A DNA stretch of 64,000 nt from a bacterium (GTDB lineage Bacteria > Patescibacteriota > Microgenomatia > UBA10105 > UBA927), in the NCBI GenBank assembly GCA_021817785.1, contig JAKAFY010000002.1, positions 11,750 through 75,749 on the forward strand, read 5' to 3'. The stretch's first letter is position 1. Every line of letters starts with the position of its first letter. Below are positions 10,246-60,924 of the stretch, piece after piece. A program made the translations under genes and the position numbers. The notes under the pieces are model-generated. The model was given only the letters and a program-made list of their open reading frames with translations. It was not told where the DNA came from and made no database searches.

Positions 10246-11070
10246 ATGGCCATGATTGAACGTTCTACATTTCGATCGCCCGAAACGCACCCTCATTCCA
10301 CGCGTGCATTGTTGTGGGCAACGCTGACCAGCGCTACTGTGGAAAAGGACTATGTGCCGAACCGAGAGCGGCAAAACACGGTATTTGACCGCATAGACTG
10401 GAGCACATTTGAGTCCGAAGTGGCTGCAGAATCGACAGGAACTGGTGAAGGAGCGGGAAAAAGGCTTCGCGGTAAGATTTTTGAGATGTTTATTCAGGCG
10501 GATCCTGAATTCGGAGAGCGTACTCCGTTGGAAAAGGAATTATTGGCCTTGGCTCACAATCCAGATGCATTTGGATTGGGGAAAGAATTAGGCTACCACC
10601 GAAACCCCGATATGGCGTTTCTTATTGTCCAAAAAGAGGATGGTGTGGTCATCGAGGGAGTCGGAGAATCGAAATTGGGACTACTAAACGAGCGCTCGTT
10701 TAAACAACTATCCGAAACAGGCTTTGCTGCCGGGGTGAAAGCGTTAGCAGACGTGGTCAATACATTGCCGAACCCAGAAGCGCATGGGCTTGTCGAAGTG
10801 GCAAAAGCACGACAGGCACTGGCTCCGGGCAAGCAGCTGCTTACAATCTCTCCGGAATTTACCCAGCTTCTTGTGGTGCCTGCAAACCGCACAATTGAGT
10901 GGGCGAGCACGCTTATTAACCGCCGAGAGTTTAGTCCAGCCGGCAGGCAGGAGTTTTACGAGTTATTGAACGATACCCGTCATGTTCGGACGGCGAGAGC
11001 GGCCTTTAGTACGGCAGAGGTATCCGCAGTTGCGAATTGTTTTTCTCGCAATTTGACGAGAGGTACATAA
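10246..11070 (+). CDS. hypothetical protein
   Basis: Start trimmed to the ATG at 10246 within ORF 10132-11070. No recognisable domain. Its last roughly 55 nt are duplicated at 12036-12090. Confidence 0.4.
   Translation: MAMIERSTFRSPETHPHSTRALLWATLTSATVEKDYVPNRERQNTVFDRIDWSTFESEVAAESTGTGEGAGKRLRGKIFEMFIQADPEFGERTPLEKELLALAHNPDAFGLGKELGYHRNPDMAFLIVQKEDGVVIEGVGESKLGLLNERSFKQLSETGFAAGVKALADVVNTLPNPEAHGLVEVAKARQALAPGKQLLTISPEFTQLLVVPANRTIEWASTLINRREFSPAGRQEFYELLNDTRHVRTARAAFSTAEVSAVANCFSRNLTRGT
10984..11039 (+). repeat. 55-bp direct repeat, left copy (3' end of the 10246-11070 gene)
   Basis: GTTCGGACGGCGAGAGCGGCCTTTAGTACGGCAGAGGTATCCGCAGTTGCGAATTG is about 87% identical to 12036-12090. Confidence 0.6.
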
Positions 11071-12035: not shown

Positions 12036-12090
12036 GTTCGGACGGTGAGAGCGGCCTTTAGTACGGCAGAAGTAAGCGCGGTGGCGAATG
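12036..12090 (+). repeat. 55-bp direct repeat, right copy (intergenic)
   Basis: GTTCGGACGGTGAGAGCGGCCTTTAGTACGGCAGAAGTAAGCGCGGTGGCGAATG. Together with the left copy it brackets the 11118-11924 ORF. Confidence 0.6.
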
Positions 12091-12627: not shown

Positions 12628-14646
12628 ATGTCAGATCAATCCCACATTCGAAATTTCGCCATCATTGCCCACATAGATCATGGCAAGAGCACGCTTGCTG
12701 ATCGGTTGTTGGAGCTTACCCATACTGTCGCTCAGCGGGACATGCATGCCCAGCTTCTGGATAGCAACCCCATCGAGCAGGAGAGGGGGATTACCATCAA
12801 ATTAGCGCCGGTGCGGATGATGTATCAAGCGAAAAACGAAAATGGAAAAACGAAAAATGAACATACGCAACACATTTCAGATTTTCCATCGTACATTTTA
12901 AATTTAATTGATACTCCGGGACACGTAGACTTTGGGTATGAAGTCAGTAGGTCGTTGGCGGCCTGTGAAGGCGCGCTCCTCGTCGTCGATGCGACGCAGG
13001 GCGTACAGGCCCAGACATTGGCCAACCTGCATCAAGCCCGTCAGCACAATCTCACCATTATTCCTTTGATAAACAAAGTCGATATGCCGCATGCTCGGAT
13101 TGCAGAAACACGAGAGGAGCTTAGAAGCTTAGGTTTTAACGATGAAGAAATGATCGAAATATCGGCAAAAACCGGGGTAAACGTGGAGAAAGTGCTGGAA
13201 GCGGTTATCGAACGTATACCACCACCCCATGGAGATCCGGATGCGCCGCTTCGGGCGCTTATATTTTCGTCCCAATACGATACGCATAAAGGCGTCGTTA
13301 TATTTGTACGGGTAGTAGATGGTAGTATTCACTTTGATCCACTATTGAGACTGAGATTTATGGCATCAAAGAGTGACAACGCTCCTATAGAAGTTGGGTA
13401 CTTTTCCCCGCAGTGGGTGGCGACTACCGATTTGCATTGCGGCGAGGTAGGGTATATCGCCACGGGACTCAAAGATGTGAAGTTGGCAAAGGTCGGGGAT
13501 ACCGTAACGATACTCGAGCAACGAGCAGCGAGTAGAGAGAAAAGGGTGTCATCGACTCTCGATACTCGTTCCTCGATGCCCGTCCCGCTTACCGGGTACA
13601 AAGAGCCCAAGTCCATGGTGTTTTTGGGGCTGTTCCCGCTGGCTGCGGATGAATATCAGGAAACGCGGGAAGCGGTAGAAAAGCTTCAGCTATCAGACAG
13701 TGCGTTTTCGTTCCGGCCCATATCGTCGCTTGCTTTGGGCAACGGCTTCCACTGCGGATTTTTAGGACTCCTGCATGCAGAAGTGGCCCAGGAACGGATT
13801 TTGCGTGAATTTGGCCTCACCATGATCGCGACCAGTCCGAGTGTGGAATATCACCTAACCCTTCATCCCGGAGTTGATTATCATAAACTTGGTTTTACAC
13901 AATCATCTGTCATTGCGAGTGAAACGAAGCAATCTCATGATGATAACGAGATCGCCACGTCCCGCGATGGCGGGACTCGCGATGACATGGGGGTGACGGT
14001 TGCCATCCAGTCTGCGGAAGAGTATCCGGATCCTTCACAGGTGGCGTCCGTCAAGGAGCCGATTATGAGCGTGGATATTTACAGCCCGAAAAAGTATACC
14101 GGCGCCATCATGCAACTTTCCCAGGAAAAACGGGGGGTGTATATGGACTTGACGTACGTTGGAGACCAAGCGCACTTTGTATACCTTATTCCGCTTTCCG
14201 AAATGATCGTCGACTTCTTTGATCGGCTAAAGAGCGTGACCGAAGGGTACGCCAGTTTGGACTACGAATTTTTTGATTGGCAAGAGGTAGAAGTCGTTAA
14301 GGTCGATATATTGGTCAATAAAGAACAGGTCGATGCACTGTCATTTCTCATCACCCGCGATGCGGCACTACAGCGCAGTCGTGAGCTGGTGGAACGCTTG
14401 GCAGGAGTGATTCCTCGCCAGCAGTTTGAAATCCCCATACAGGCCACCATAGGCGGCCAGGTGATCGCACGATCGGACGTGAAAGCGTTTCGCAAAGACG
14501 TCACGCGCAAGCTCTATGGCGGTGACCGCACCCGGAAAGACAAACTCTTGGAAGCACAAAAGAAAGGCAAGGCGAAGATGAAAATGATCGGGAGAGTGGA
14601 GATACCACAGTCAGCGTTCTTTCAGGTGCTGAAGCGGACGAATTGA
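12628..14646 (+). CDS. lepA: elongation factor 4 (LepA) translational GTPase with three in-frame insertions
   Basis: IRNFAIIAHIDHGKSTLADRLLE G1 motif, DTPGHVDF, NKVD, and LepA-specific C-terminal domains. At 672 aa it is about 70 aa longer than typical LepA. Confidence 0.92.
   Translation: MSDQSHIRNFAIIAHIDHGKSTLADRLLELTHTVAQRDMHAQLLDSNPIEQERGITIKLAPVRMMYQAKNENGKTKNEHTQHISDFPSYILNLIDTPGHVDFGYEVSRSLAACEGALLVVDATQGVQAQTLANLHQARQHNLTIIPLINKVDMPHARIAETREELRSLGFNDEEMIEISAKTGVNVEKVLEAVIERIPPPHGDPDAPLRALIFSSQYDTHKGVVIFVRVVDGSIHFDPLLRLRFMASKSDNAPIEVGYFSPQWVATTDLHCGEVGYIATGLKDVKLAKVGDTVTILEQRAASREKRVSSTLDTRSSMPVPLTGYKEPKSMVFLGLFPLAADEYQETREAVEKLQLSDSAFSFRPISSLALGNGFHCGFLGLLHAEVAQERILREFGLTMIATSPSVEYHLTLHPGVDYHKLGFTQSSVIASETKQSHDDNEIATSRDGGTRDDMGVTVAIQSAEEYPDPSQVASVKEPIMSVDIYSPKKYTGAIMQLSQEKRGVYMDLTYVGDQAHFVYLIPLSEMIVDFFDRLKSVTEGYASLDYEFFDWQEVEVVKVDILVNKEQVDALSFLITRDAALQRSRELVERLAGVIPRQQFEIPIQATIGGQVIARSDVKAFRKDVTRKLYGGDRTRKDKLLEAQKKGKAKMKMIGRVEIPQSAFFQVLKRTN
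13510..13580. repeat. family-A in-frame repetitive element in lepA
   Basis: CTCGAGCAACGAGCAGCGAG...CTCTCGATACTCG encodes EQRAASREKRVSSTLDTRSS, about 17 aa longer than LepA orthologs at this loop. Confidence 0.6.
13909..13986. repeat. family-B palindromic element, 78-bp in-frame copy in lepA
   Basis: GTCATTGCGAG...CGAAGCAATCT...GTCCCGCgatgGCGGGAC...CGCGATGAC, with terminal inverted repeats. It shares the 5' 13-mer and the CGAAGCAATCT box with 32608-32699, and is exactly 26 codons long. Confidence 0.65.
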
Positions 14647-16452: not shown

Positions 16453-16554
16453 AGATATAGTATAGGCAGATTTATCTGTAGGAAGTCAATGTTGCTGCTA
16501 CATGATGCTCATGGACACACAATAAACCACTATATCTGTTTATCATTTGCTAAT

Positions 16555-16580
16555 TTCCCCAATTGGTGAAATTGACAAAT
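16555..16580 (+). promoter_or_regulatory. palindromic operator-like motif copy 1 (TTCCCCAATTGGTGAAATTGACAAAT)
   Basis: Contains CCAATTGG and the CAATT-N5-AATTG inverted repeat plus a TTGACA -35-like hexamer. It lies 30 bp upstream of the PaaX-like gene. Confidence 0.45.
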
Positions 16581-16608
16581 TACCATACTACATCGTACGA
16601 TAGGGAGT

Positions 16609-17190
16609 ATGGCTAGGCGGGGGGCTAAAAAAGACATGAAGCAGCACGCGACGAAAGAAATTATATTAGAGTTGTTGCGTGAGGGCGGAACCCTTCTTAT
16701 CAGCGCGATAAAAGCAGGCCAGGAGCTTCGGCATCTTCGGGTACTTCGTGACCCGCTTCCGTCCTGGGAAGCGTATTATCCTTCGTCGGTCAATCGGCAA
16801 CTCAACCGTTTGTGGCGGAAAGGATATGTGGATATACGGGAAACGACTGAAGGATATGTTGTAACGATTTCTGATCGGGGGAAGACAGAAGTGCTTCGGT
16901 ATGACCTCAATACGATGGCAATTCCTGCTCAAACACAGTGGGATGGTAAATGGCGCATGGTGATATTTGATATTCCTGGGAGCGAAGAAACCGTACGGTC
17001 CGCATTTCGTAATCATTTAAAATCATTGGGATTTTACCAAATGCAAAAAAGTGTCTATGTCTATCCCTACCCTTGCGACGAGCAAATTCATTATCTGCGT
17101 GAGGTGTACAACATTCCGCATTCCGTTAAAATCGCGACGATTTCTGAGCTGGAAAACGATGAAGATTTGCGAAAAATCTTTCATTTATAA
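16609..17190 (+). CDS. PaaX-family transcriptional regulator
   Basis: N-terminal winged-helix region, and the C-terminal WDGKWRMVIFDIPGSEETVRSAFRNHLKSLGFYQMQKSVYVYP matches the PaaX_C signature W-G-W-x-V-x-F-x-P-E...LGFG. Confidence 0.7.
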   Translation: MARRGAKKDMKQHATKEIILELLREGGTLLISAIKAGQELRHLRVLRDPLPSWEAYYPSSVNRQLNRLWRKGYVDIRETTEGYVVTISDRGKTEVLRYDLNTMAIPAQTQWDGKWRMVIFDIPGSEETVRSAFRNHLKSLGFYQMQKSVYVYPYPCDEQIHYLREVYNIPHSVKIATISELENDEDLRKIFHL

Positions 17191-17192
17191 GT

Positions 17193-17235
17193 ATATATTT
17201 GTCAATTTTCCCAATTGGTGGATTTGACAAATATA
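17193..17235 (+). promoter_or_regulatory. palindromic operator-like motif copy 2 (ATATATTTGTCAAT-tttCCCAATTGGtgg-ATTTGACAAATAT)
   Basis: Near-perfect 13-bp inverted repeat flanking the CCAATTGG core. It lies between the paaX-like stop and the first gene of the paralog array. Confidence 0.5.
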
Positions 17236-17251
17236 TCCAAATACACAGCAT

Positions 17252-39291: not shown

Positions 39292-39333
39292 GATATTTGT
39301 CAATTTCACCAATTGGGAAATATAACAAATATA
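39292..39333 (-). promoter_or_regulatory. palindromic operator-like motif copy 3 (reverse orientation), upstream of the GNAT gene
   Basis: ATATTTGTCAATttcaCCAATTGGgaaATATAACAAATAT is the reverse complement of the 16555/17207 motif. It lies about 65 bp upstream of the GNAT start. Confidence 0.45.
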
Positions 39334-39421
39334 TGTGAAGCGACTCAAGACATACAAAGCCTATCATCTGCTTAGGTGATCCCGTATGCGGAAGGCGGGC
39401 TATTACTGAACGGCCCGTTTT

Positions 39422-40060: not shown

Positions 40061-43000
40061 TTATTTCGTCTGTTTGGCAAACCGTACCTCGATTTTTTCA
40101 CCAACGACATCTATACGGTCCGCTTTCCAGGTACGACTGATTTTTTTATCCAGATGCTGGAGGACAATGTCATTAAAATTATTGAGCTGATGATGGATGG
40201 TGCCCGAAACCACTTTCATAAGAATCGGCAAGTCCATATGCAAAGAGTTCGGTTCTACGACGAGTCCCTTTTGCGGGTCGGTAATCAGCGTTCCGCTAAA
40301 TGCAGCCTCTCCGAATATGGGCGATTTTGCTTTCATATCAACAAGCTTTGCGGTATTTCCGTCCAGCGTGATTTTTCCCTCAGTAATACGCGTGTTTCCT
40401 GCCATATGGAGTGAAGACTTAAGATAATCCATAAGTTCGCCGGTCGTGACATCCATAACCGCGCTCGTCTGTTCTTTTGACCGGTCCAGGATATAATGCA
40501 TACGGTCCTCAACGCCTTCCGGAAGCATTTCCCGTGACGGCGCCGGCATAGCAACTTCCGGCGTTCCCTGGTTTTGGGTCGATGTAACGTCAGGAGAGGA
40601 AATGGAAGACGCCATGGTTTCCGCCTTCGCTGAAGCTTCGGCGGACAAGTCCGCTGGTCCCTCCGTCGCGGAAGCTTCTGAGGATGAGCCCGCAACATTT
40701 TCCAGTGCTTCTCGGGCAGTTGCCGGTTCCGGTTTCGTGGCCTCAACTACTTCGCTGGCTGCCTGTTTGGCAAACGCTTCCGTGTCTATTTCTGCACCCA
40801 TATTTGCCGATAAGCTGGTCATATCGGTTATCAGGACTTTGTCGTCTTTGACTTCGTATTGTATGCCTAACGCATCCATCGTGCGTTTAAAGTATCCGTC
40901 AAAACGGGCGGGGTTGGCTGCTTTAAGGGACGGATACAGTGTGGCATACATATTCGACAGGTTTGCTTCGAGTTGTTCTTTGGTATAGGATTCCGTGGCT
41001 TTTTGGGCCATATCGGACCATGACATATCTTTGTACGTATCATTCTTTTCAAGCGGGACCTGTTCGGCAAGTCCCATTGGCTGCAAATATTGGTAATAGA
41101 TGGTTTCCTTGGGGTCGATCGTTGTCCGCATTTCGGGAATGATTTGTATACCATCTCCAGAGCCGCGGGCCGACCTCATCATCCAGGAAAGTTCACGGTC
41201 CTCGGCTCCCGGGGAGTCCGCATGATAGCCGCCGACCGCCGCAAGAGAGCCTGCGCGGATAGCCATGTTGCCGCTATAGACATTCGGAATGCTTCCGGTA
41301 TCTCCATGGCGGACAAACGCGTCAAAGAGCTCAAATGCGCGGTGGCTTGCAAATAACATGGGATACTGGGTAAATGCTTCTGCGGGTAATTCATTTGCAC
41401 CACTTATGATATCAACAGTGGGATTGGCATCAGCGGCATCGATAAGGCCTGCGACATACGTGGGTTGTACCGTCATACCCGGCACGGTGTTGTCTGTCAA
41501 AAGCAGTACGTCCGGGTGATCGGCAGGAAGCGTACCTAACCGCGACAGGACGTAGTTCGAAAGATCCCGTTTGATGCGCCCGCTCTTCAGATCTCCGTCA
41601 TAGGTGTGGGAAAGATAGACGACATGTGCGTCCGGGTGCTCGGTCATGAACGTATCAACGTCTGTTTTTACCGTGCTTTCCGCTGCGGGATTGATGTCAT
41701 AGACGATGAGCTCTACCTTTTTAAGATCCAGAGGCGCGCCGTCTTTGGTAGTTTGATTTGTATACTGAGCCAGCCGTTGTCCGATACCGGTCCCCGCCGA
41801 AGACGTGGGGAAGGTGATAACGGTTCGCACATCTGGTGCGATCGGCGCATCATGCTGGGCGACCAGACCGGAAAGTATATTCGTATCCTCCTGCGGGAGC
41901 TGGCTTAGATACCATGCGATTTCCTCCGATTGGGAAAGTTTTGCCTGCGGATTTTCCGTAAGCCGCGGAGATTTCCGGCTATCCATGGTTTCTTTGGAAA
42001 TAAACGCGCCTTCGTTGCCCAGCGGGAAATAAAATGTTTCGGCAGACGGCGCTACTTCCGAAGGAAGTGCTTCCATGGGCGCGGCTTCCAATACGGATCG
42101 CACCGGAAGAATAACCGGGAACCAGGGGATTTCCCCGGCGACTGCGGTGGCAGTGTGTGTGGCTGCCGTGTTGAATTCACTGAATACCTGTCCGATATGA
42201 CGCGTTGCGAAATCTTCCGTTGACCGGCCGACAGACGACCCTGCTGCTGCCACATAGTCACGCGCGGCCATATCGCGCACCCCACGGTCGAGCATGTCCC
42301 CGGCATGTATAGCTTGCGTGGCTGCTGCATCATGAGCTTGTACGGTTTGTGCCGCCACAGCGTCATGTACCTGCGTCATTTCGCTGGGAAGCGTGTAGGG
42401 AATTTTGATCGTATTTCCGATAACAGGTCCGATGTGAGCCACTTCAGCAGTGGGATAGGACGGAGTAATGCTTATAAGATTGTGTGTAGCAGTCGGGGCT
42501 TCAACAACGGGTGCTCCAACGACCGGTGTGGTATGAGGTGCCGTGCCGCTTAAACGCGCCATAAATGAGGTAAGATCCGTCGGGTTCGGTAATTGATTAT
42601 CCTGTCCTACGTACCCGAGTTTCAACGCGATTGCTTCATACCGCGACTCTCCGCCTTTGTCATAAAGGTGTTGTATGGCATCAAGCGGACCCGCCGACTT
42701 TGCGAGTTCCTTCTGATAATCAATAAGCGCTTGGTGTTGAATTTTGGCAAATTCTTTTATGCCATCTGGTCCGAATACCTTCGGATCTACGTGAATTGTT
42801 GCATCGTTGGGAATTCTGGAAAGGTCCATTTCACTCGTTGGCCCTATACCGCCATGTGTAGCATCGCCAAATGTTGCATGGCGGAAGTTTTCCGGATGTT
42901 TTATTGCATCAAAAAAGTTGGCATGAGGTGAATCGTTGGGAATATCAATAACTTTGTCCATGTGATCGTGGGCATACATACGGAACATATTTTTAAAGGC

Positions 43001-46000
43001 GTTTGCCTCTGATACATTATTCGTTTTTCCCAGGAAGTAGTCCCATACGCCGCCCTTCCCAAGCTCTCCACCGGATATAGTCATCGGCTCGGTTACCGTC
43101 GAAGACGGCAGCACATCCGGATTTGTGACGCCGGATGCCGGGACGACGTTCGAAGCTGTGTGGACGTTTGTGGATTTCCAATCAAGGCCGTGTGCATGGA
43201 GCTGGTCGGTAATCCGCTGTAATTCAGTCGGGGTTCCCTGAAAGTTTCCTGTGCCATCAAATTTTACCGTCGTAACGACGGTATGGTTGGGGTCAAGAAT
43301 CTGCCAGTCATGATGGTCCGGGACGTAATGTATCGTGTAATCGGGAGGGAGATTGATGGCCAGCCGATCGACCCCTGCGGGGGCAGTAAGGTTTGGAATA
43401 GTGGGGGAATCATAGGTAAAAGAGCCTGGTTCACCGGCCGGATGTGCGTTTACCATATGGAGTCCTGCGTTGTGTAACGTGTCGGTCAACTGTTGCGGAC
43501 TCATGTCGTGCCCCAGGGTAATGTCGTGCACCGGACCATTGACGTGAAATGCCGCGTCGTAGGTTACCACGCGTTCGTCCGGTCCGCCGGTGACATGCTG
43601 TACGATATCGATTTCTTTGGGTAGTTGATATGTTTGGTTGCCGATGAGGACGGTGTGGTCCGCGGATGGGGGAGAGATCGGAACCGTTTCGGTACGTGTA
43701 CTTATCGGACTAAAGGTAGCCGGTTCGGTGCTGTTTTGTATCGTATCTTTAGCATGCTGAGTGGCGGTGTGGACCGCATCGGTAACCTGAGCATTGTGTG
43801 CAAGTGCTTCGACTCCCTGAATTGCTGCTCCTACGGCGGCACCGATGACACCGGCTTTCACGCCGTATTTGACCGCTTCCAATCTCGCCTCATTATTAAA
43901 CTCGGCAAGGATCGCATCCATACCCATGGCTTTTTCATCCGGTGTCGTTTGGCGTCCCGCAAACGGCCACCGGCGTTTGATCATATCTGCTTCCGGAGCG
44001 TATTGAGAGACGAAACCAAGCGTTGCTTTGACCGGGTCGTCAAAACTATCCATTTTACCGATGCCGTCTTTCAAAATTTGGGTCTGTGCAACGGTAAGTT
44101 TTTCCATGAATTCTGGGAATGCATTGCCGCCGAGTACGTTGTCTAATTTACCTAGGTCACTTAGGTGACTTAGGTCATTTAAGACATTTGAAGCCATAAT
44201 ATCGAGCGCCGCCCGTTCGCTTTCTATCCCTTCCCGGCTGGAATATTGGACCAGTCCGATGCGTTTGGGACCAACCTCACTTATGGCTTTGCGGGCGTGG
44301 AGATCGGCAACAGTCGCAAACGCGGTACGGAGTTCGTCGTCGGTAAGTGTCGTTTTCAGCACCGGCATGCCGCCATCTGCGGGCGTTTCATACAGACTGG
44401 ATTGCATGGTGTGCATCATTTCATTGGCGCTTCGCTGTTTCACACTAAAGCGTTCGAACCATGCACGGCGTTTCATGGTATCCGTAAATTGTGTCCCTGC
44501 CTCGCGTTCCCGCAGGTGCGTAAGATAATCTTTCTGGAGCTGGCCGTATTCTTTCCATCCGGCAAATACACCGCCCGCCAGTGCTCCTCCGGTAATATTT
44601 CCGATCGGTCCGCCGATAATGCGGAATGGAGTCGTTTTTAAAAAGTTCAGCGCGGATAATGCTATGGCGACGCCGGAACCGATCGTCGCTTCGTTAAACA
44701 CCATCGGCACGATGACATTTTTCTTATTGAGCCATTCATAGACTTCGCGCACCCTGCCGATACCGCGTTCGACGGCTGTGGGCTCCAAGCTCGTGACTTC
44801 TCCCATGGCACCCAACCCCAGCCGGATCTGGAGTCCGGACATGGCCTGGTCGATATTGGCAAGTCCTGCCTCATGCGACATTTTATTCCGGAGCATTTCT
44901 GCCGCATCAAAAAGACTCGAACTATATAATTCTGCTTCAGCAAATACATCCGGACGGACATTTTTGAGCGTCGCATTGAAGAATTCTTTTGTTCGTTTAT
45001 CAAACTCTGTTTTGTCCGCTATCTCGCCGGTGGCGTACTGTTTGAGTAATCCTTGTATCCCTTCCACTAATGGTTTGTGTTCTTCTTTGGTGGCATCCAA
45101 AATTTCCAGTTTTTCTCCGAGCTGGGTGCGGACAAACTGATCGGCTTTGTCCATGTCTTGGGAGAAACGCATACGTACCGCTTTTGCTTCCCGTTCAAAG
45201 ATTTCCGCGCCTTTAAGCTCTCCTGCGGCCTTCATGACGCCTATTTCTTCCAGTGCCATGTTTTGGATGGCGCTCCTCATACCGAGCTTATCTTTGAGCC
45301 AATCGATGGCCTTGGTGCCGGCACGTACGATGAAATTGGCATCGTTTAATTTTTTGTTGTACCGTTCGGTGGCCCGGGCTTCTGCCAGGCGGATGGATTG
45401 TTCGGCAAACGGCGTTTCTGCAGTTTTTAACATGTCCATGTAGTATTCCCGCGCCCGCTCATGGAAGTAGATGCCACCGATACTTTGTTTCCAAAGCGAG
45501 GTAAAGACAAACTCATGCACTGCGTGCGCGCCTTCTTTGGTTTTGTCCCAAAGGTTTTTGGTAGCAGCGGCACGCTCGGTCATTTGCGGCGTCGTCATTT
45601 TTTGCATCGCCCGGTCGGCCAGATCCAGTGCGCGGGTTTCATACGCCCGTAACCCGACGATCGTGATGGTATTCGGGTCTTCTGTCAGCGTTTCCAATAC
45701 TTTGCGGGCTTCTTTGGATGGCGTTGGTGTGGCAGGTATTGCCTCTTCTTGCGGCGCTTCCGGCTGTTCTGCAAGTTGTTCCTGCGGTATTTCCGTTTCC
45801 GGAAGGGGAGGTTCCGTCACTTCCTGCGGTAATGCTCCTTCAGCCGGATTGCCGGATTCATCCGGGGGCGTAAGATCTGCCGATACGTCTGATGTGCCTT
45901 TCGGCGTTTCATTATTATCTCCCGGTTGTATGGGAGTCTCTTGTTGGGTATCGGCGGGCGCATCAGCCGGAGACGGCTCGCTGGAGACAGCAGGTTCTGC

Positions 46001-46357
46001 GCCGGCCGCCGGTTGTTCTAATGCTAATGCTTCTTTCGGAATGATGTGCGCTACTCCCGCCTCATCTGTCCACTGGATGCCGGATATTTTGTCCCATGCC
46101 ATCTGGTCCATGGTGTCGACGTGGATGACTGGTTTGTCAATGATTTTGCCTTCCTCACCCTTTTTTCTGCTGGGCTCCCGGACCATAAGGACGCTGCTTT
46201 CGACGCCGGACGGAGAGCGCTTGTCCGATGATTGTATGACGACCGATGTGACCTCCGTGTCGCCCACTTTGATCGGGGTTTTAAGGTACAGCGGCGTCTC
46301 TCCCACAACGATTTGTTGCGGAATATGCATTTCCTGTGTCGGGATAGGGTCAGGCAT
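40061..46357 (-). CDS. giant (2098 aa) multidomain protein
   Basis: Continuous 6.3 kb ORF with a Pro/Glu-rich low-complexity linker near the N-terminus, several Gly/Ala-rich hydrophobic stretches, and a possible degenerate GT-A-like region (VITFPTSSAG...ELIVYDINP...LLLTDNTV). It contains the in-frame TTAGGTGAC repeat. Confidence 0.7.
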   Translation of the reverse strand: MPDPIPTQEMHIPQQIVVGETPLYLKTPIKVGDTEVTSVVIQSSDKRSPSGVESSVLMVREPSRKKGEEGKIIDKPVIHVDTMDQMAWDKISGIQWTDEAGVAHIIPKEALALEQPAAGAEPAVSSEPSPADAPADTQQETPIQPGDNNETPKGTSDVSADLTPPDESGNPAEGALPQEVTEPPLPETEIPQEQLAEQPEAPQEEAIPATPTPSKEARKVLETLTEDPNTITIVGLRAYETRALDLADRAMQKMTTPQMTERAAATKNLWDKTKEGAHAVHEFVFTSLWKQSIGGIYFHERAREYYMDMLKTAETPFAEQSIRLAEARATERYNKKLNDANFIVRAGTKAIDWLKDKLGMRSAIQNMALEEIGVMKAAGELKGAEIFEREAKAVRMRFSQDMDKADQFVRTQLGEKLEILDATKEEHKPLVEGIQGLLKQYATGEIADKTEFDKRTKEFFNATLKNVRPDVFAEAELYSSSLFDAAEMLRNKMSHEAGLANIDQAMSGLQIRLGLGAMGEVTSLEPTAVERGIGRVREVYEWLNKKNVIVPMVFNEATIGSGVAIALSALNFLKTTPFRIIGGPIGNITGGALAGGVFAGWKEYGQLQKDYLTHLREREAGTQFTDTMKRRAWFERFSVKQRSANEMMHTMQSSLYETPADGGMPVLKTTLTDDELRTAFATVADLHARKAISEVGPKRIGLVQYSSREGIESERAALDIMASNVLNDLSHLSDLGKLDNVLGGNAFPEFMEKLTVAQTQILKDGIGKMDSFDDPVKATLGFVSQYAPEADMIKRRWPFAGRQTTPDEKAMGMDAILAEFNNEARLEAVKYGVKAGVIGAAVGAAIQGVEALAHNAQVTDAVHTATQHAKDTIQNSTEPATFSPISTRTETVPISPPSADHTVLIGNQTYQLPKEIDIVQHVTGGPDERVVTYDAAFHVNGPVHDITLGHDMSPQQLTDTLHNAGLHMVNAHPAGEPGSFTYDSPTIPNLTAPAGVDRLAINLPPDYTIHYVPDHHDWQILDPNHTVVTTVKFDGTGNFQGTPTELQRITDQLHAHGLDWKSTNVHTASNVVPASGVTNPDVLPSSTVTEPMTISGGELGKGGVWDYFLGKTNNVSEANAFKNMFRMYAHDHMDKVIDIPNDSPHANFFDAIKHPENFRHATFGDATHGGIGPTSEMDLSRIPNDATIHVDPKVFGPDGIKEFAKIQHQALIDYQKELAKSAGPLDAIQHLYDKGGESRYEAIALKLGYVGQDNQLPNPTDLTSFMARLSGTAPHTTPVVGAPVVEAPTATHNLISITPSYPTAEVAHIGPVIGNTIKIPYTLPSEMTQVHDAVAAQTVQAHDAAATQAIHAGDMLDRGVRDMAARDYVAAAGSSVGRSTEDFATRHIGQVFSEFNTAATHTATAVAGEIPWFPVILPVRSVLEAAPMEALPSEVAPSAETFYFPLGNEGAFISKETMDSRKSPRLTENPQAKLSQSEEIAWYLSQLPQEDTNILSGLVAQHDAPIAPDVRTVITFPTSSAGTGIGQRLAQYTNQTTKDGAPLDLKKVELIVYDINPAAESTVKTDVDTFMTEHPDAHVVYLSHTYDGDLKSGRIKRDLSNYVLSRLGTLPADHPDVLLLTDNTVPGMTVQPTYVAGLIDAADANPTVDIISGANELPAEAFTQYPMLFASHRAFELFDAFVRHGDTGSIPNVYSGNMAIRAGSLAAVGGYHADSPGAEDRELSWMMRSARGSGDGIQIIPEMRTTIDPKETIYYQYLQPMGLAEQVPLEKNDTYKDMSWSDMAQKATESYTKEQLEANLSNMYATLYPSLKAANPARFDGYFKRTMDALGIQYEVKDDKVLITDMTSLSANMGAEIDTEAFAKQAASEVVEATKPEPATAREALENVAGSSSEASATEGPADLSAEASAKAETMASSISSPDVTSTQNQGTPEVAMPAPSREMLPEGVEDRMHYILDRSKEQTSAVMDVTTGELMDYLKSSLHMAGNTRITEGKITLDGNTAKLVDMKAKSPIFGEAAFSGTLITDPQKGLVVEPNSLHMDLPILMKVVSGTIHHQLNNFNDIVLQHLDKKISRTWKADRIDVVGEKIEVRFAKQTK

Positions 46358-50664: not shown

Positions 50665-51297
50665 GTGACTCCTACTATACTCGCCATCGTAGGAAAGCCT
50701 CTCGCCGGCAAAGATACCCAAGCCGACTTACTTGTGGCAGCCCACCCCGAAGCCGTCAAAATTTCCACCGGCCATATCCTGCGCGCCGTGCGTGAAGAAG
50801 GGGAGACGCATCGGTTTTGGCCGATTGTAGGGCACCTGATGCCCATGATGGAAGCCGGCCTCAAATTGCCGGATCCCGAGGTCATCGAGATGCTGGGGCG
50901 CGCAATCAGTGAGCAAGTGGCGGAAGGCAAAACACTGTTGGTTATCGCAGGTTCCCCGCGCAGCATTGAGCAGCTGGAAAGCTTTGAAGGGATGGCAAAC
51001 GCGATAGACGGTAAGCTCGTGGTCGTCCATGTCAACGCAACAGATGCCGAAACCTACCGACGAAGCGCCAGCCGCAACGAGGGAAGGGTGGATGATACGC
51101 CGGAGGTGCATGCCGTGCGCCTGAAAGAATACGAAACACATGTCGTGCCGATGGTAGAAAAGTTACGTGCCGACCACAATATAGTGGATATAGACGGGAT
51201 GAAGTCCATAGAGTCCGTATTCCGTGATATGGAACACGTGGTCCGCACCCGCATCCTGGACCCCGAAGTTGCTTTGCCCCGCATGGCCAGGCGGTAA
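50665..51297 (+). CDS. adenylate kinase-like NMP kinase (paralog 1) with an atypical P-loop
   Basis: ILAIVGKPLAGKDTQA...ISTGHILRAV, GSPRSIEQ, and RVDDTPE LID-like motifs match Adk architecture. The P-loop GKDT replaces the canonical GKGT. Confidence 0.7.
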   Translation: MTPTILAIVGKPLAGKDTQADLLVAAHPEAVKISTGHILRAVREEGETHRFWPIVGHLMPMMEAGLKLPDPEVIEMLGRAISEQVAEGKTLLVIAGSPRSIEQLESFEGMANAIDGKLVVVHVNATDAETYRRSASRNEGRVDDTPEVHAVRLKEYETHVVPMVEKLRADHNIVDIDGMKSIESVFRDMEHVVRTRILDPEVALPRMARR

Positions 51298-51306
51298 TTC
51301 ACCCGT

Positions 51307-51948
51307 ATGAAACAGCAACCCACCATCATATCTATACTCGGCCGTCCTATGTCCGGCAAAGACACGCAGGCGGCGTTTCTGAAAGAACGCTATCCCGAGG
51401 CAGTCATCCTGTCTACCGGGGCCATGATCCGAGAGGTAAAAGAAACCGGTCCTTCGCATCGGTTTTGGCCCATATTGGGGCAGGAAATAGAGGTCATGGA
51501 CAAAGGCATACTCATCTCCGAAGACGCCATAAACCAGGTGTTTGAACGGGTGGTACACGAGCAGTTGGAAGCCGGAAAAACGCTGATTATCGCTACCGCT
51601 CACCCGCGGACACCAAAGGAGTTGCAGTCGTTTGACGCTATGCTTGCCCGCGAAGGCTTGCAGTTTATCGGGATACATTTGCAGACGTCAGAAGCGTATA
51701 TGCGCAAGCTTCACAAAACGCGGGACGGGAGCAACCGCGCAGATGACGATGTGGCTGTGCTGGATACGCGGACACAGGAATTTGAACACCGTACCAAGCC
51801 CGTTATAGATGCCCTGCGCAGCGAAGGACGCATTGCAGATATCGACGGGGAGGCTTCGAAAGAAATTGTCTATTCACGCGTTTTGGATGTCGTACGTCCG
51901 GCGTTGGGGGATCCTGAAATTACGTTGCCCATGATGGCAAGGAGATAA
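51307..51948 (+). CDS. adenylate kinase-like NMP kinase (paralog 2) with an atypical P-loop
   Basis: IISILGRPMSGKDTQA...LSTGAMIREV, AHPRTPKE, and RADDDVAV match Adk architecture. It lies 9 bp downstream of paralog 1. Confidence 0.7.
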   Translation: MKQQPTIISILGRPMSGKDTQAAFLKERYPEAVILSTGAMIREVKETGPSHRFWPILGQEIEVMDKGILISEDAINQVFERVVHEQLEAGKTLIIATAHPRTPKELQSFDAMLAREGLQFIGIHLQTSEAYMRKLHKTRDGSNRADDDVAVLDTRTQEFEHRTKPVIDALRSEGRIADIDGEASKEIVYSRVLDVVRPALGDPEITLPMMARR

Positions 51949-53257: not shown

Positions 53258-53362
53258 CAGAAAGGTAGTATAGCATGAAAAGAGAATGAATGGCCAATAG
53301 CCACGAATTAAGTCAAAAGTGAATTCACAAACTAAACGATAAATACACTTTTATTCTTTTAC

Positions 53363-53400
53363 TATTTGTATTTTTTCCCAATTGGTGGATTTGGCAAATG
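53363..53400 (+). promoter_or_regulatory. palindromic operator-like motif copy 4 (TTTTCCCAATTGGTGGATTTGGCAAAT)
   Basis: Same CCCAATTGGTGGATTTG core as the copy at 17207. It lies between two minus-strand genes. Confidence 0.4.
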
Positions 53401-53407
53401 AGCGGAA

Positions 53408-60419: not shown

Positions 60420-60782
60420 TATGCCGTAGTATAGCGTATTTTGGAGAATTTTGCGAGGAGGGGATTATGTAGGCCACTGCAACGGTCGGCCTCTCCCATT
60501 TTGTTCTGTGACTAATTTTTGAAATTTAGCTTCTCGTCGAGTTCGAAATATTTTGTTGGCTTTTTCGCCCGTAAAATTTTTAGCGAGTTCCGCAGCATCA
60601 TCTCCTGCGGCCTGTCGGAGTGAAAAATCATCACCCTTTATTTCAACCGTTTTACTATGTATGGATACATACATATTTGTATTATACCCCACAATACAAG
60701 CGGTGTGCCGCTATGGGGCTTGATTGACTCGTTAGCGAATCGATGCATATCGATGAGTGTACGTCATCAATCCTAGCGCTTT

Positions 60783-60850
60783 GTGCCCCTAGAGGGAATT
60801 GAACCCCCATCTTGCCCTTAGGACGGGCCTGCTCTCCGCCTGCCATAGCC
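60783..60850 (-). pseudogene. tRNA-Arg-like partial copy (anticodon arm plus T arm only; no foldable 5' half)
   Basis: The minus-strand sequence GGCCCGTCCTAAGGGCAAGATGGGGGTTCAATTCCCTCTAGGGGCAC is about 80% identical to the 3' two-thirds of the adjacent tRNA-Arg. The 23 nt upstream cannot form an acceptor or D stem. Confidence 0.35.
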
Positions 60851-60852
60851 TG

Positions 60853-60924
60853 TGCCCTTGGGGGGAATCGAACCCTCATCTCACCCTTAGGACGGGTTTG
60901 CTCTATCCATTGAGCTACAAAGGC
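60853..60924 (-). tRNA. tRNA-Arg (anticodon CCT), no encoded CCA
   Basis: Manual fold. Acceptor stem GCCTTTG/CAAGGGC (one G-U pair), D arm GCTC-AATGGATA-GAGC, anticodon stem with loop GTCCTAA (U33, CCT, A37), T arm GAGGG-TTCGATT-CCCCC, discriminator A. Confidence 0.75.

Follow-up and report, generated by a model that had tools for sequence, protein, structure and literature searches.

Three in-frame inserts in a Gottesmanbacteria LepA are probably hairpin-forming selfish DNA segments

Three in-frame inserts lengthen the LepA protein encoded in a 64,000-nucleotide stretch of DNA (the window), and they are probably hairpin-forming DNA segments similar to the Rickettsia palindromic elements (RPEs), that is, selfish palindromes tolerated in permissive loops. 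For insert 3, sequence and structure comparison identifies a copy of a real, widespread and structured palindromic repeat that crosses phyla, here called family B. The gene, its inserts and an adjoining extension are listed below, P0002 being the nearest orthologue.

12628 to 14646, + strand: lepA (translation elongation factor 4, LepA/EF4), 672 amino acids, uninterrupted open reading frame (ORF)
12829 to 12888, + strand: insert 1, 20 codons, AKNENGKTKNEHTQHISDFP; a gap against P0002
13514 to 13582, + strand: insert 2 ("family A"), a hairpin adding 18 amino acids (aa 298-315 by alignment), absent from P0002
13876 to 13908, + strand: lineage-wide extension at site 3, DYHKLGFTQSS, non-palindromic
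13909 to 13986, + strand: core of insert 3, a 78-nt family B palindrome read as VIASETKQSHDDNEIATSRDGGTRDD (aa 428-453)

Despite the three inserts, lepA is intact and apparently functional, as judged from its reading frame and motifs. The ORF at 12628-14646 is free of the frameshifts that would mark a pseudogene. Its product scores 768.5 bits against the TIGR01393 profile, passing the equivalog cut-off of 533.9, and PDB structures of EF4 match it at E 1e-179. Only GTPase, EF-G and LepA domains were found by Pfam (GTP_EFTU at 6-199, EFG_C at 476-560, LepA_C at 563-669, and a weak EF-Tu domain 2, D2, at 222-294, below Pfam's cut-off), and the same scan detected no Hint or intein domain. The GTPase motifs AHIDHGKST, RGITIK, DTPGH, NKVD and SAK can all be read complete in the translation, and the top Foldseek matches of an AF2 model of the protein are LepA structures. 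The earlier note on this DNA had read the motifs as intact and the gene as probably functional, and had described a LepA about 70 amino acids longer through three separate in-frame insertions; all of this agrees with our results, and its coordinates (12838-12890, 13510-13580 and 13909-13986) are accurate to a few bases, with the third coinciding exactly with the palindrome. The host is an uncultured Gottesmanbacterium and belongs to the CPR.

The window LepA exceeds 13 canonical LepA proteins (each of at most 603 amino acids) by 74 amino acids, with window-specific columns at aa 72-87 (16), 298-315 (18) and 417-456 (40), and in an alignment to Thermus thermophilus EF4 (5imq) gaps open opposite query aa ~72-84, ~299-315 and 418-454. 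The nearest orthologue, P0002 (= L054), is syntenic, has 550 identical positions (~90% identity in shared columns) and lacks all three inserts. The gaps against it are located at 12829-12888 (20 aa), at 13534-13587 as the aligner places it (18 aa), and at site 3, where the window has a net gain of 20 aa. The sister clade as a whole (P0002, P0003, P0005, P0015 and P0033) is without the three inserts. Their absence from P0002 and its clade suggests that the inserts are of recent origin. Site 3 contributes 40 of the extra residues, of which about 14 (DYHKLGFTQSS.., ..MGV) are nevertheless Gottesmanbacteria-wide and do not belong to a recent insert; the motif D/EYxKLGFTxxx is present in nearly all Gottesmanbacteria LepAs, and in relatives without an element the fold z of the 20-aa extension conserved at site 3 is about 0. 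The claim that the extra residues are recent and not lineage-wide therefore probably holds for the inserts absent from P0002 and fails for these 14 or so residues.

All three inserts sit within or between Pfam domains, and in the AF2 model, which is mediocre (mean pLDDT 75, with domain III poorly modelled), they are coil between secondary-structure elements. The pLDDT drops below 50 at aa 300-313 in insert 2 and at aa 433-450 in insert 3, and the residue blocks covering insert 1 have means of 57-71. The GRAVY of the inserts ranges from -1.4 to -1.9, compared with -0.25 for the whole of LepA. The insert peptides are thus predicted to be hydrophilic and are probably disordered.

Insert 3 lies between domain III and EFG_C. 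Its terminal inverted repeat is 13 nt long and 92% complementary, and its predicted fold (dG -40.6 kcal/mol; z -4.0 to -5.4) is the extreme of lepA. The family B element at site 3 replaces about 8-10 residues and is not a simple addition. It aligns with 45 other copies, and in these 46 sequences the ends, Y-GTCATTGCGAG...CTCGCAATGAC-R, are nearly invariant and form 12-bp terminal inverted repeats. The canonical element is ~80 nt long, with conserved arms, a second conserved stem inside the ends, and a hypervariable apex beside which compensatory changes are found. Against the covariance model R1, insert 3 scores 80.4 bits and is among the best-scoring, least decayed copies; the same model detects 65 and 68 elements in the two sets of loci scanned. 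Rfam at the gathering score reports two tRNAs only in the 64-kb window, and at E up to 10 the inserts and a second family B copy in the window give weak matches, far below gathering scores.

Family B is found far beyond LepA. A 26-mer of the element is present in 111 IMG/VR stretches and in at least 120 metagenome stretches, and the window-specific apical loop, AATCYCATGATGATAAYGRGATYGC, has no match in the metagenome scan. Using blastn, we have identified copies on replicons of Methylosinus, Methylocystis, Methylobacterium and Novosphingobium, with at least 40 on N. resinovorum CP017076, and on a plasmid of the cyanobacterium Aulosira, none of them under an annotated feature. Besides Gottesmanbacteria, the repeat occurs on replicons of Alphaproteobacteria, on a plasmid of a cyanobacterium and on contigs of phages. 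The genes flanking family B in the viral contigs include phage-type proteins that turn up repeatedly, along with spurious ORFs created by reading through the repeat; among these neighbours, neither a nuclease nor a transposase recurs. A protein database search with a 51-aa concatenation of two element peptides returned nothing at E <= 10, and a full-text literature search yielded nothing relevant on the terminal repeat or on MITEs in Patescibacteria.

Coding and free copies differ in length and phase. Free copies lie mostly outside long ORFs and can be of any length; the remainders after division by 3 are 16/16/14 and 15/21/24 in the two sets, i.e., without bias. The 10 LepA-borne copies (66-84 nt) are all multiples of 3 and all read VIAS...R(N/D)D, and among the metagenome copies in long open frames, six of eight have a length divisible by 3 and run in the same direction as the frame. 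Examples lie in a MurC-type ligase, immediately ahead of the GATase domain of PurL, and twice in one Acs-like enzyme; these copies and that of locus L210 are multiples of 3, in uninterrupted frames and in one phase. The second copy in the window reads as follows.

32608 to 32699, unstranded: family B copy of 92 nt, not a multiple of 3, scoring 54.3 bits with R1

The ORF at 32609-33340 (- strand) owes its final ~30 codons and its TGA stop to this copy. The coding copies are the subset of all family B copies that has been filtered for translatability.

We propose that short hairpin-forming DNA segments entered lepA at three places and survived there because each is a multiple of 3, has no stop codon in frame and occupies a permissive coil site. 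As their frame and length suggest, they would be translated as hydrophilic, probably disordered peptides. Recurrence at the three LepA sites would reflect mainly which sites tolerate inserts. E. coli can lose LepA with little effect. Family B could move in trans, via an enzyme that leaves no target-site duplication, and our best guess is a hairpin or single-strand route such as that of REP-RAYT or IS200/IS605. Direct repeats of 3-9 nt flank 98 family B copies no more often than expected from permutations, no target duplication flanks the 11 Gottesmanbacteria copies, and Pfam detects no transposase domain in 31 ORFs of the 64-kb window. Since neither a transposase, a partner element nor a target duplication was identified, we infer transposition of family B from its distribution. 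The earlier note had offered two explanations, of which an active insertion mechanism is the better one for insert 3, because the same element occurs at three LepA loops and in the MurC, PurL and Acs-like genes. The other, a reduced genome under relaxed selection, is right in that the genome is CPR, but relaxed selection is not needed, since family B is in frame on non-CPR-looking metagenome contigs and its free copies are abundant in free-living Alphaproteobacteria.

Inserts 1 and 2 may be hairpin inserts of broadly the same kind, either as genome-specific families or as products formed in place. Insert 2 directly follows EF-Tu domain 2. Its arms consist of CGAGnnn / nnnCTCG heptads forming an inverted repeat of 19-26 nt (77-84% complementary), with a dG of -28.8 and a moderate z of about -2.4 to -2.8, and its windows rank in the top 10 of lepA. 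One similar hairpin is located in argS.

2518 to 2584, + strand: family A look-alike in argS, a hairpin in the same phase as insert 2, with the peptide IIEQREPSSENRGSMLDTRYSNF

The argS hairpin has an inverted repeat of 14 nt (93% complementary; z -2.1), and the argS insert (2534-2584) is absent from the L054 and L059 orthologues. A regular expression for heptad arms, run on the window and on loci of relatives, picked up no hairpin besides these two, and blastn-short does not match them to each other, although they have the heptad unit, the phase and a similar peptide in common. As far as the sequences tell, family A amounts to two look-alikes whose common feature is mainly the heptad pattern; insert 2 as a hairpin element, like family B as a repeated palindromic family and insert 3 as an element of it, had been recognized correctly, and the notion of a family A survives only in this reduced form. 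In a viral scan, the family A pattern CTCGATRCTCGATACTCGA picked out four stretches, all of them plain CTCGATA microsatellites and not hairpins. A single lineage-specific hairpin insert was confirmed in argS, where two or three had been claimed, and no mreB, said to carry one insert, was found by Pfam on 31 ORFs or by motif search. Insert 1 is located at the turn of a G-domain beta-hairpin, between the strands at aa 62-67 and 88-94. It has a weak A-rich/T-rich inverted repeat (arms 12839-12856 and 12882-12899, 72-80% complementary) and a fold z of -1.9 to -2.7, outside the top 12 windows of lepA and not above the gene background; no second copy was found in the window or in relatives.

It is possible, though doubtful, that slippage followed by template switching to an inverted copy generated inserts 1 and 2 in situ, together with the heptad-armed hairpins found at site 1 in other LepAs, none of which would then be mobile elements. 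Each of the heptad-armed hairpins is essentially unique to its genome and has arms of tandem 7- to 8-nt units, insert 1 is single-copy, the two family A hairpins are unmatched by blastn-short, and tandem CTCGATA occurs as a plain microsatellite in unrelated contigs. However, uniqueness was judged within 64 kb of this genome, an origin in place leaves the absence of whole blocks from close orthologues unexplained, and two family A hairpins with the same unit, phase and similar peptide are present in two genes of one genome.

The three insert sites are hot spots of variation across Gottesmanbacteria: among 120 LepA homologues, 48, 24 and 35 vary in length at sites 1, 2 and 3, respectively. Unrelated hairpins are found at these sites in other Gottesmanbacteria, those at site 1 having z values of -1.2 to -4.5. 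Family B itself occurs at site 1 in L062 and P0017, at site 2 in L026, and at site 3 in the window and in L056-L062. On the LepA tree, the lineages with family B at site 3 are scattered, so an old insertion with repeated loss, or recombination, is as possible as fresh insertion. We then consider, tentatively, that lepA of Gottesmanbacteria has long carried family B at site 3, through vertical inheritance or homologous recombination between lepA alleles, and that the element repeatedly decays or is deleted. The element occupies one and the same codon position in eight or more scattered lineages, the LepA copies keep their hairpin pairing, and one clade has a series of an intact element (P0009), another 39-nt hairpin (P0016) and a short allele (P0029). 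Short site-3 alleles and family B have 8- to 10-mers in common, and these alleles were evaluated as deletion remnants; control windows from the same genes left only L004 and L027, both marginal. These two have the 9-mer GAAGCAAAC of the element (p about 0.03-0.05), but most short alleles are negative when tested as remnants, the five sister-clade sequences have one conserved short allele in which traces of the element are not significant (L054, p=0.19; L001, p=0.09), and the window copy, at 80 bits, is among the least decayed.

In relatives' DNA (about 428 kb), 10 of the 11 family B copies are in lepA, in a set that includes seven loci picked because their LepA has family B, and chance with tolerance explains this proportion poorly. 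An unlikely reading is that family B is a cross-phylum "protein-coding palindrome" that prefers the phase VIAS...RND and, in Gottesmanbacteria, lepA. Behind such a preference there would have to be a homing-like or recombination-driven mechanism, or else selection acting in favour of the hairpin in the lepA message or DNA, and the heptad-armed hairpins that recur at those loops would stem from the same targeted process.

We regard it as quite improbable that the inserts are adaptive, lineage-specific functional loops with which LepA might, for instance, contact the unusual CPR ribosome, with the hairpin being incidental. Length variation is indeed concentrated at the three sites and part of site 3 is conserved lineage-wide, but the insert sequences are wholly different between lineages and absent from the closest orthologue, the insert segments are predicted to be disordered and hydrophilic, and insert 3 matches repeats outside annotated genes in other phyla. 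Even less plausible is that ribosomes bypass the hairpins, or that these are cut out of the mRNA, so that a protein of canonical length results: the insert 3 RNA hairpin is strong (dG about -40 kcal/mol), but removal or bypass needs no multiple of 3, open frame or single phase, all of which are seen in 10 of 10 LepA copies and in the other coding copies, whereas free copies have no such bias, and there is neither an intein/Hint domain nor an Rfam match. An assembly artefact or a decaying pseudogene can be dismissed almost entirely, for although the source is a metagenome-assembled genome (MAG) and palindromes can confuse assemblers, the ORF is intact with an equivalog-level score, an independent assembly (ENA contig L055; 99.985% identity, two mismatches in 13.6 kb) has the same 672-aa LepA, and many independent MAGs have inserts at the same sites.

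If the three inserts are selfish palindromes as we propose, in-frame palindromic selfish DNA in conserved genes, long seen as largely a Rickettsia peculiarity, would extend to the CPR, and a single ~80-nt palindrome would have colonized several unrelated enzymes and organisms. For annotation, this could account for a large part of the unusual variation in length among conserved CPR proteins and for recurrent peptides (VIASEAKQS.., SLRGAKRRSN.., ..LLRFARNDG) derived from translated copies of the repeat. The three LepA sites would serve as a natural map showing where 20-30 additional residues can be accommodated, and family B as a trackable marker for gain, decay and loss.

Among known systems, inteins and bypass elements (T4 gene 60, mitochondrial "byp") also place extra in-frame or hairpin sequence in a conserved gene with a working product. 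Here the inserts are 18-26 aa long and there is no Hint or intein domain; since the coding copies are multiples of 3 and stop-free, ordinary read-through translation is indicated, not bypass or splicing. Family B resembles the REP sequences of REPIN-RAYT systems in being a hairpin-forming extragenic palindrome with no target duplication and a high copy number in some genomes. REPs, however, are about 20-40 nt long, species-specific and accompanied by a RAYT gene (IS200/IS605-type Y1), whereas family B is about 80 nt long, is translatable and keeps almost identical arms from one phylum to another, and no RAYT was seen among the 31 window ORFs scanned. MITEs and other small repeats are known within ORFs, including ERIC, BOX/RUP/SPRITE, Correia and cyanobacterial MITEs (reviewed in PMC3184786). 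Family B is MITE-like in being small and non-coding, with terminal inverted repeats, many copies and occasional in-frame fusion, and the copy at 32608-32699 supplies the 3′ end of a gene; classical MITEs have a target-site duplication and a parent insertion sequence, but family B has no duplication in 98 copies and no known parent.

The closest likeness is to the Rickettsia palindromic elements, reportedly described by Ogata et al. in Science in 2000 and in Genome Res in 2002. In both systems, short palindromes of several coexisting families are both intergenic and in frame in unrelated housekeeping genes, and they are read, here by inference, as extra peptide segments, which appear compatible with the fold in Rickettsia and may be so here. 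RPEs and other small repeats are fused in frame to ORFs (PMC10969869, PMC3184786), and in-frame palindromic repeats are likewise found here in the coding genes of LepA, ArgRS, MurC, PurL and an Acs-like enzyme. RPEs belong to one genus and are ~105-146 nt long (PMC3184786), whereas the elements here are 66-92 nt long and are found in CPR/Gottesmanbacteria, with family B in many phyla; because host taxon and length differ, family B is not filed as an RPE, a separation drawn on these two properties. Unlike the situation in Rickettsia, several unrelated hairpins recur here at three loops of one protein across a lineage.

The ORF that holds the three inserts scores 768.5 bits with the NCBIfam lepA equivalog (cut-off 533.9) and matches EF4 chains in the PDB with E about 1e-179. 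Its Pfam domains are GTP_EFTU (aa 6-199), a weak EF-Tu domain 2 (222-294), EFG_C (476-560) and LepA_C (563-669). The gene and its inserts are as follows.

12628-14646, + strand: lepA (LepA/EF4), 672 aa, uninterrupted ORF
12829-12888, + strand: insert 1, with A-rich and T-rich arms of 15-18 nt, only 72-80% complementary
13514-13582, + strand: insert 2, a hairpin with arms built of CGAGnnn and nnnCTCG heptads
13909-13986, + strand: insert 3 core, a 78-nt palindrome with terminal arms of 13 nt

The interpretation in the earlier note was largely right and its LepA finding is real. It had proposed three separate insertions, and three gaps indeed open in the alignment with T. thermophilus EF4; against 13 canonical LepAs, none longer than 603 aa, the columns specific to the window (aa 72-87, 298-315 and 417-456) add up to 74 residues, the entire excess length. 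The GTPase motifs that it described as intact can all be read in the translation (AHIDHGKST, RGITIK, DTPGH, NKVD and SAK). An identical LepA is encoded by the independently assembled ENA contig L055 (99.985% identity over 13.6 kb), and therefore the inserts are not an assembly accident.

Loci related to the window carry the names Candidatus Gottesmanbacteria, Microgenomates or Patescibacteria. LepA homologues in the Gottesmanbacteria-related group are 592 to 758 aa long, and when 120 homologues are aligned, variation in length clusters at the same three sites: the G-domain turn (site 1), just after domain II (site 2), and between domain III and EFG_C (site 3). Five or more extra residues were found in 48, 24 and 35 of the 120 homologues, respectively. 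P0002, the closest orthologue, is encoded on the syntenic Logan contig L054, which has argS, Nramp, MgtE and lepA in the window order; it shares about 90% identity in shared columns and is without all three inserts, as are the next relatives (P0003, P0005, P0015 and P0033). In the same 22-kb comparison of the window with L054, the MgtE and Nramp orthologues show zero gaps.

Each insert contains an inverted repeat at the DNA level. The insert 3 core folds at -40.6 kcal/mol (z -4.0) and is the most extreme fold in lepA in a sliding 80-nt scan (z -5.4). Insert 2 folds at -28.8 kcal/mol (z -2.4) and its windows are within the top ten of the gene, while insert 1 folds no better than several ordinary lepA windows. 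The addition at site 3 is the 78-nt element alone; the flanking DYHKLGFTQSS and MGV belong to a lineage extension of about 20 aa that is found in nearly all Gottesmanbacteria LepAs and shows no sign of a hairpin (z about 0). The extra residues, which had been taken as recent, are thus lineage-wide for about one fifth of their length, namely these site-3 flanks. An AlphaFold2 model computed with 74 homologues (mean pLDDT 75, pTM 0.71, domain III poorly modelled) matches LepA crystal structures with a TM-score, normalised to the target, of up to 0.78. In the model, insert 1 is a coil between G-domain strands 62-67 and 88-94, insert 2 (aa 300-313, pLDDT <50) directly follows the last domain 2 strand, and insert 3 (aa 433-450, pLDDT <50) lies between short strands before EFG_C. 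With GRAVY values of -1.4 to -1.9, vs -0.25 for the whole LepA, the peptides encoded by the inserts are strongly hydrophilic.

The insert 3 core belongs to a palindromic repeat, family B, which recurs in the window and at site 3 of eight other LepA homologues (P0004, P0008-P0011, P0013, P0017 and P0036). It is also found at site 1 in P0017 and P0036 (locus L062) and once at site 2, in L026.

32608-32699: second family B copy in the window

A 243-aa ORF without a Pfam match (32609-33340, - strand) has its TGA stop inside the terminal repeat of this second copy, so that the element provides the stop and about 30 codons of the C-terminus. Eleven DNA copies, ten in LepA genes plus the second window copy, align well and support a three-way structure with compensatory changes. 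Among these eleven, 95.7% of cells pair vs 92.4% in shuffles (reached by 0 of 500), and a slid-partner control gives 30-48%. IMG/VR contains the 26-mer GTCATTGCGAGYGAAGCGAAGCAAWC in 111 stretches, and a close variant is present in at least 120 metagenome stretches. By blastn, the consensus is found on replicons of Novosphingobium, Methylosinus, Methylocystis, Methylobacterium and the cyanobacterium Aulosira, at 40 or more places on one Novosphingobium replicon, and no annotated features underlie these matches. A 46-copy alignment gives the canonical form GTCATTGCGAGCGAAGCGAAGCAATCCAG, a variable 15-35 nt, then CTGGATTGCTTCGTCGCTnCGCTCCTCGCAATGAC, with compensatory changes at the base of the apical stem. 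Across 98 copies with flanks, the palindrome is one base longer on each side (Y before, R after) and no target-site duplication was found. Family B matches no Rfam family, and our full-text literature searches found no description of it.

Free copies of family B are about 77-100 nt long and spread evenly over the length classes modulo 3 (16/16/14 in viral loci, 15/21/24 in metagenome loci). The ten LepA-borne copies are of 66, 69, 69, 72, 72, 75, 75, 75, 78 and 84 nt and share one phase, VIAS...R(N/D)D. Eight of 68 metagenome copies lie within open frames extending at least 60 codons on either side; of the eight, six have a length divisible by 3 and run in the direction of the frame. Their hosts are listed below, and every copy given there is in-frame, has a length divisible by 3 and reads in the VIAS...RND phase.

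L235, 1252-1332: in a MurC-type Mur ligase
L229, 5545-5616: in PurL, immediately before the GATase domain
L228, 757-834 and 1042-1107: two copies in an Acs-like AMP-binding enzyme
L210, 592-657: in an unassigned protein

These patterns argue that the coding copies are a filtered subset, probably translated by ordinary read-through, and argue against removal or bypass of the inserts. Peptides from the three phases include VIASEAKQS.., SLRGAKRRSNP..LDCFASLAMT and ..LLRFARNDG, and on viral contigs they are seen as spurious ORFs beside phage-type genes. The SLR...LAMT phase is also open in a multiple-of-3 element. Since the SLR...LAMT reading is strongly basic, with a mean net charge of +3.9 vs +1.4, selection on the peptide could be the cause of the single coding phase.

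In a neighbour-joining LepA tree built without the insert columns, site-3 copies of family B are scattered over lineages whose sisters lack them. One clade forms a series: an intact 75-nt element in P0009, a different hairpin of 39 nt in P0016, and in P0029 a 21-nt allele that has GAAGCAAAC in common with family B. The P0016 hairpin (L178), GCCCGCCTGCC...GGCGGGCAGG, stands in place of family B or the short allele of its sister lineages. Measured against other windows of the same genes, a remnant signal of family B is marginal and confined to L004 and L027 (p about 0.03-0.05), and absent from the sister clade of the window. Given this scatter and the marginal signal, three histories are possible: a fresh insertion in the lineage of the window, allele exchange between lepA genes, or an ancient insertion with repeated loss. 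Across about 428 kb of DNA from relatives, a covariance model identified 11 family B copies, and ten fall in lepA. This concentration is poorly explained by chance and tolerance, even with seven of those loci picked for family B in LepA. Small GIY-YIG nuclease ORFs (91 aa) lie within a few kb of lepA on two Gottesmanbacteria contigs with family B in LepA (L058, 422-697; L059, 6367-6642), and no family B element adjoins them.

No further copies of insert 1 were found. For the heptad-armed type of insert 2 (family A), a regular expression matched exactly two hairpins in the window and the searched loci of relatives: the lepA insert itself and a second hairpin, in argS.

2518-2584: family A look-alike in argS, found by the heptad-arm expression

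The argS hairpin is missing from two orthologues, and the two hairpins are read in the same phase into similar peptides (IIEQREPSSENRGSMLDTRYS vs ILEQRAASREKRVSSTLDTRSS). They do not match by blastn-short, and family A is therefore plausible but weakly founded as a family. An origin of inserts 1 and 2 in situ, via slippage and template switching, is a serious rival to arrival from elsewhere. Site 1 of other Gottesmanbacteria LepAs holds quite different hairpins (z -1.2 to -4.5), each with arms built from 7-8-nt units in tandem, and a peptide of CHP..ARNDK type. The SAISHQSS..DRKL peptide family recurs at sites 1 and 3, and NSKQK..SIHSSLFT at sites 1 and 2. Hairpin DNA of unrelated kinds thus repeatedly lands, or survives, at the three LepA sites. 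The suggestion of several inserts in argS did not hold, as its other differences from canonical ArgRS are lineage-wide or small, and mreB, said to carry one insert, was itself not found by Pfam scans of 31 ORFs and a motif search. A K/Q/N-rich extension at aa ~60-110 of ArgRS (641-2668), between the N-terminal and catalytic domains, is common to the L054 and L059 orthologues, and so lineage-wide rather than recent.

Several other features were observed in the window. Four copies of a 42-nt palindromic motif, ATATTTGTCAATTTnCCCAATTGGnGnAnTTGACAAATAT, were found (16543-16584, 17195-17236, 39293-39334 and 53362-53403); two of them bracket an ORF with PaaX_M/Cas2-like domains (16609-17190), so the motif looks like a putative operator for that regulator. 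Upstream of lepA is a 54-nt direct repeat (10984-11037 and 12036-12089; 89% identical, 1052 nt apart). A tRNA-like duplicate (60782-60835), which neither ARAGORN nor Rfam calls as a tRNA, is 83% identical to the adjacent tRNA-Arg(CCT) at 60852-60924. Two tandem adenylate-kinase paralogues, each with Pfam ADK, lie at 50665-51297 and 51307-51948.

40061-46357, - strand: very long ORF, 2098 aa

The best-supported account of LepA insert 3 is a trans-mobilised palindrome with filtering in coding DNA. Family B would be a non-autonomous palindrome, mobilised in trans by an enzyme whose action leaves no duplication, and would occasionally enter coding DNA; a coding copy would persist only if it has a length divisible by 3, contains no stop, is hydrophilic and lies in a loop. 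Three aspects are noteworthy: a single palindrome family in coding DNA across phyla, one reading phase in all coding copies, and the concentration of Gottesmanbacteria copies in lepA. Family B is not a REP, given its size and cross-phylum conservation, nor a classical MITE, given its lack of target-site duplication. In-frame coding insertion is known for Rickettsia palindromic elements and several other small bacterial repeats (PMC10969869, PMC3184786). The Rickettsia elements show the same behaviour, landing in-frame in coding DNA with tolerated copies persisting. We do not file family B among them, on the grounds of its different taxon and size. The LepA inserts add one more case to a known kind of event and do not represent a new kind of system.
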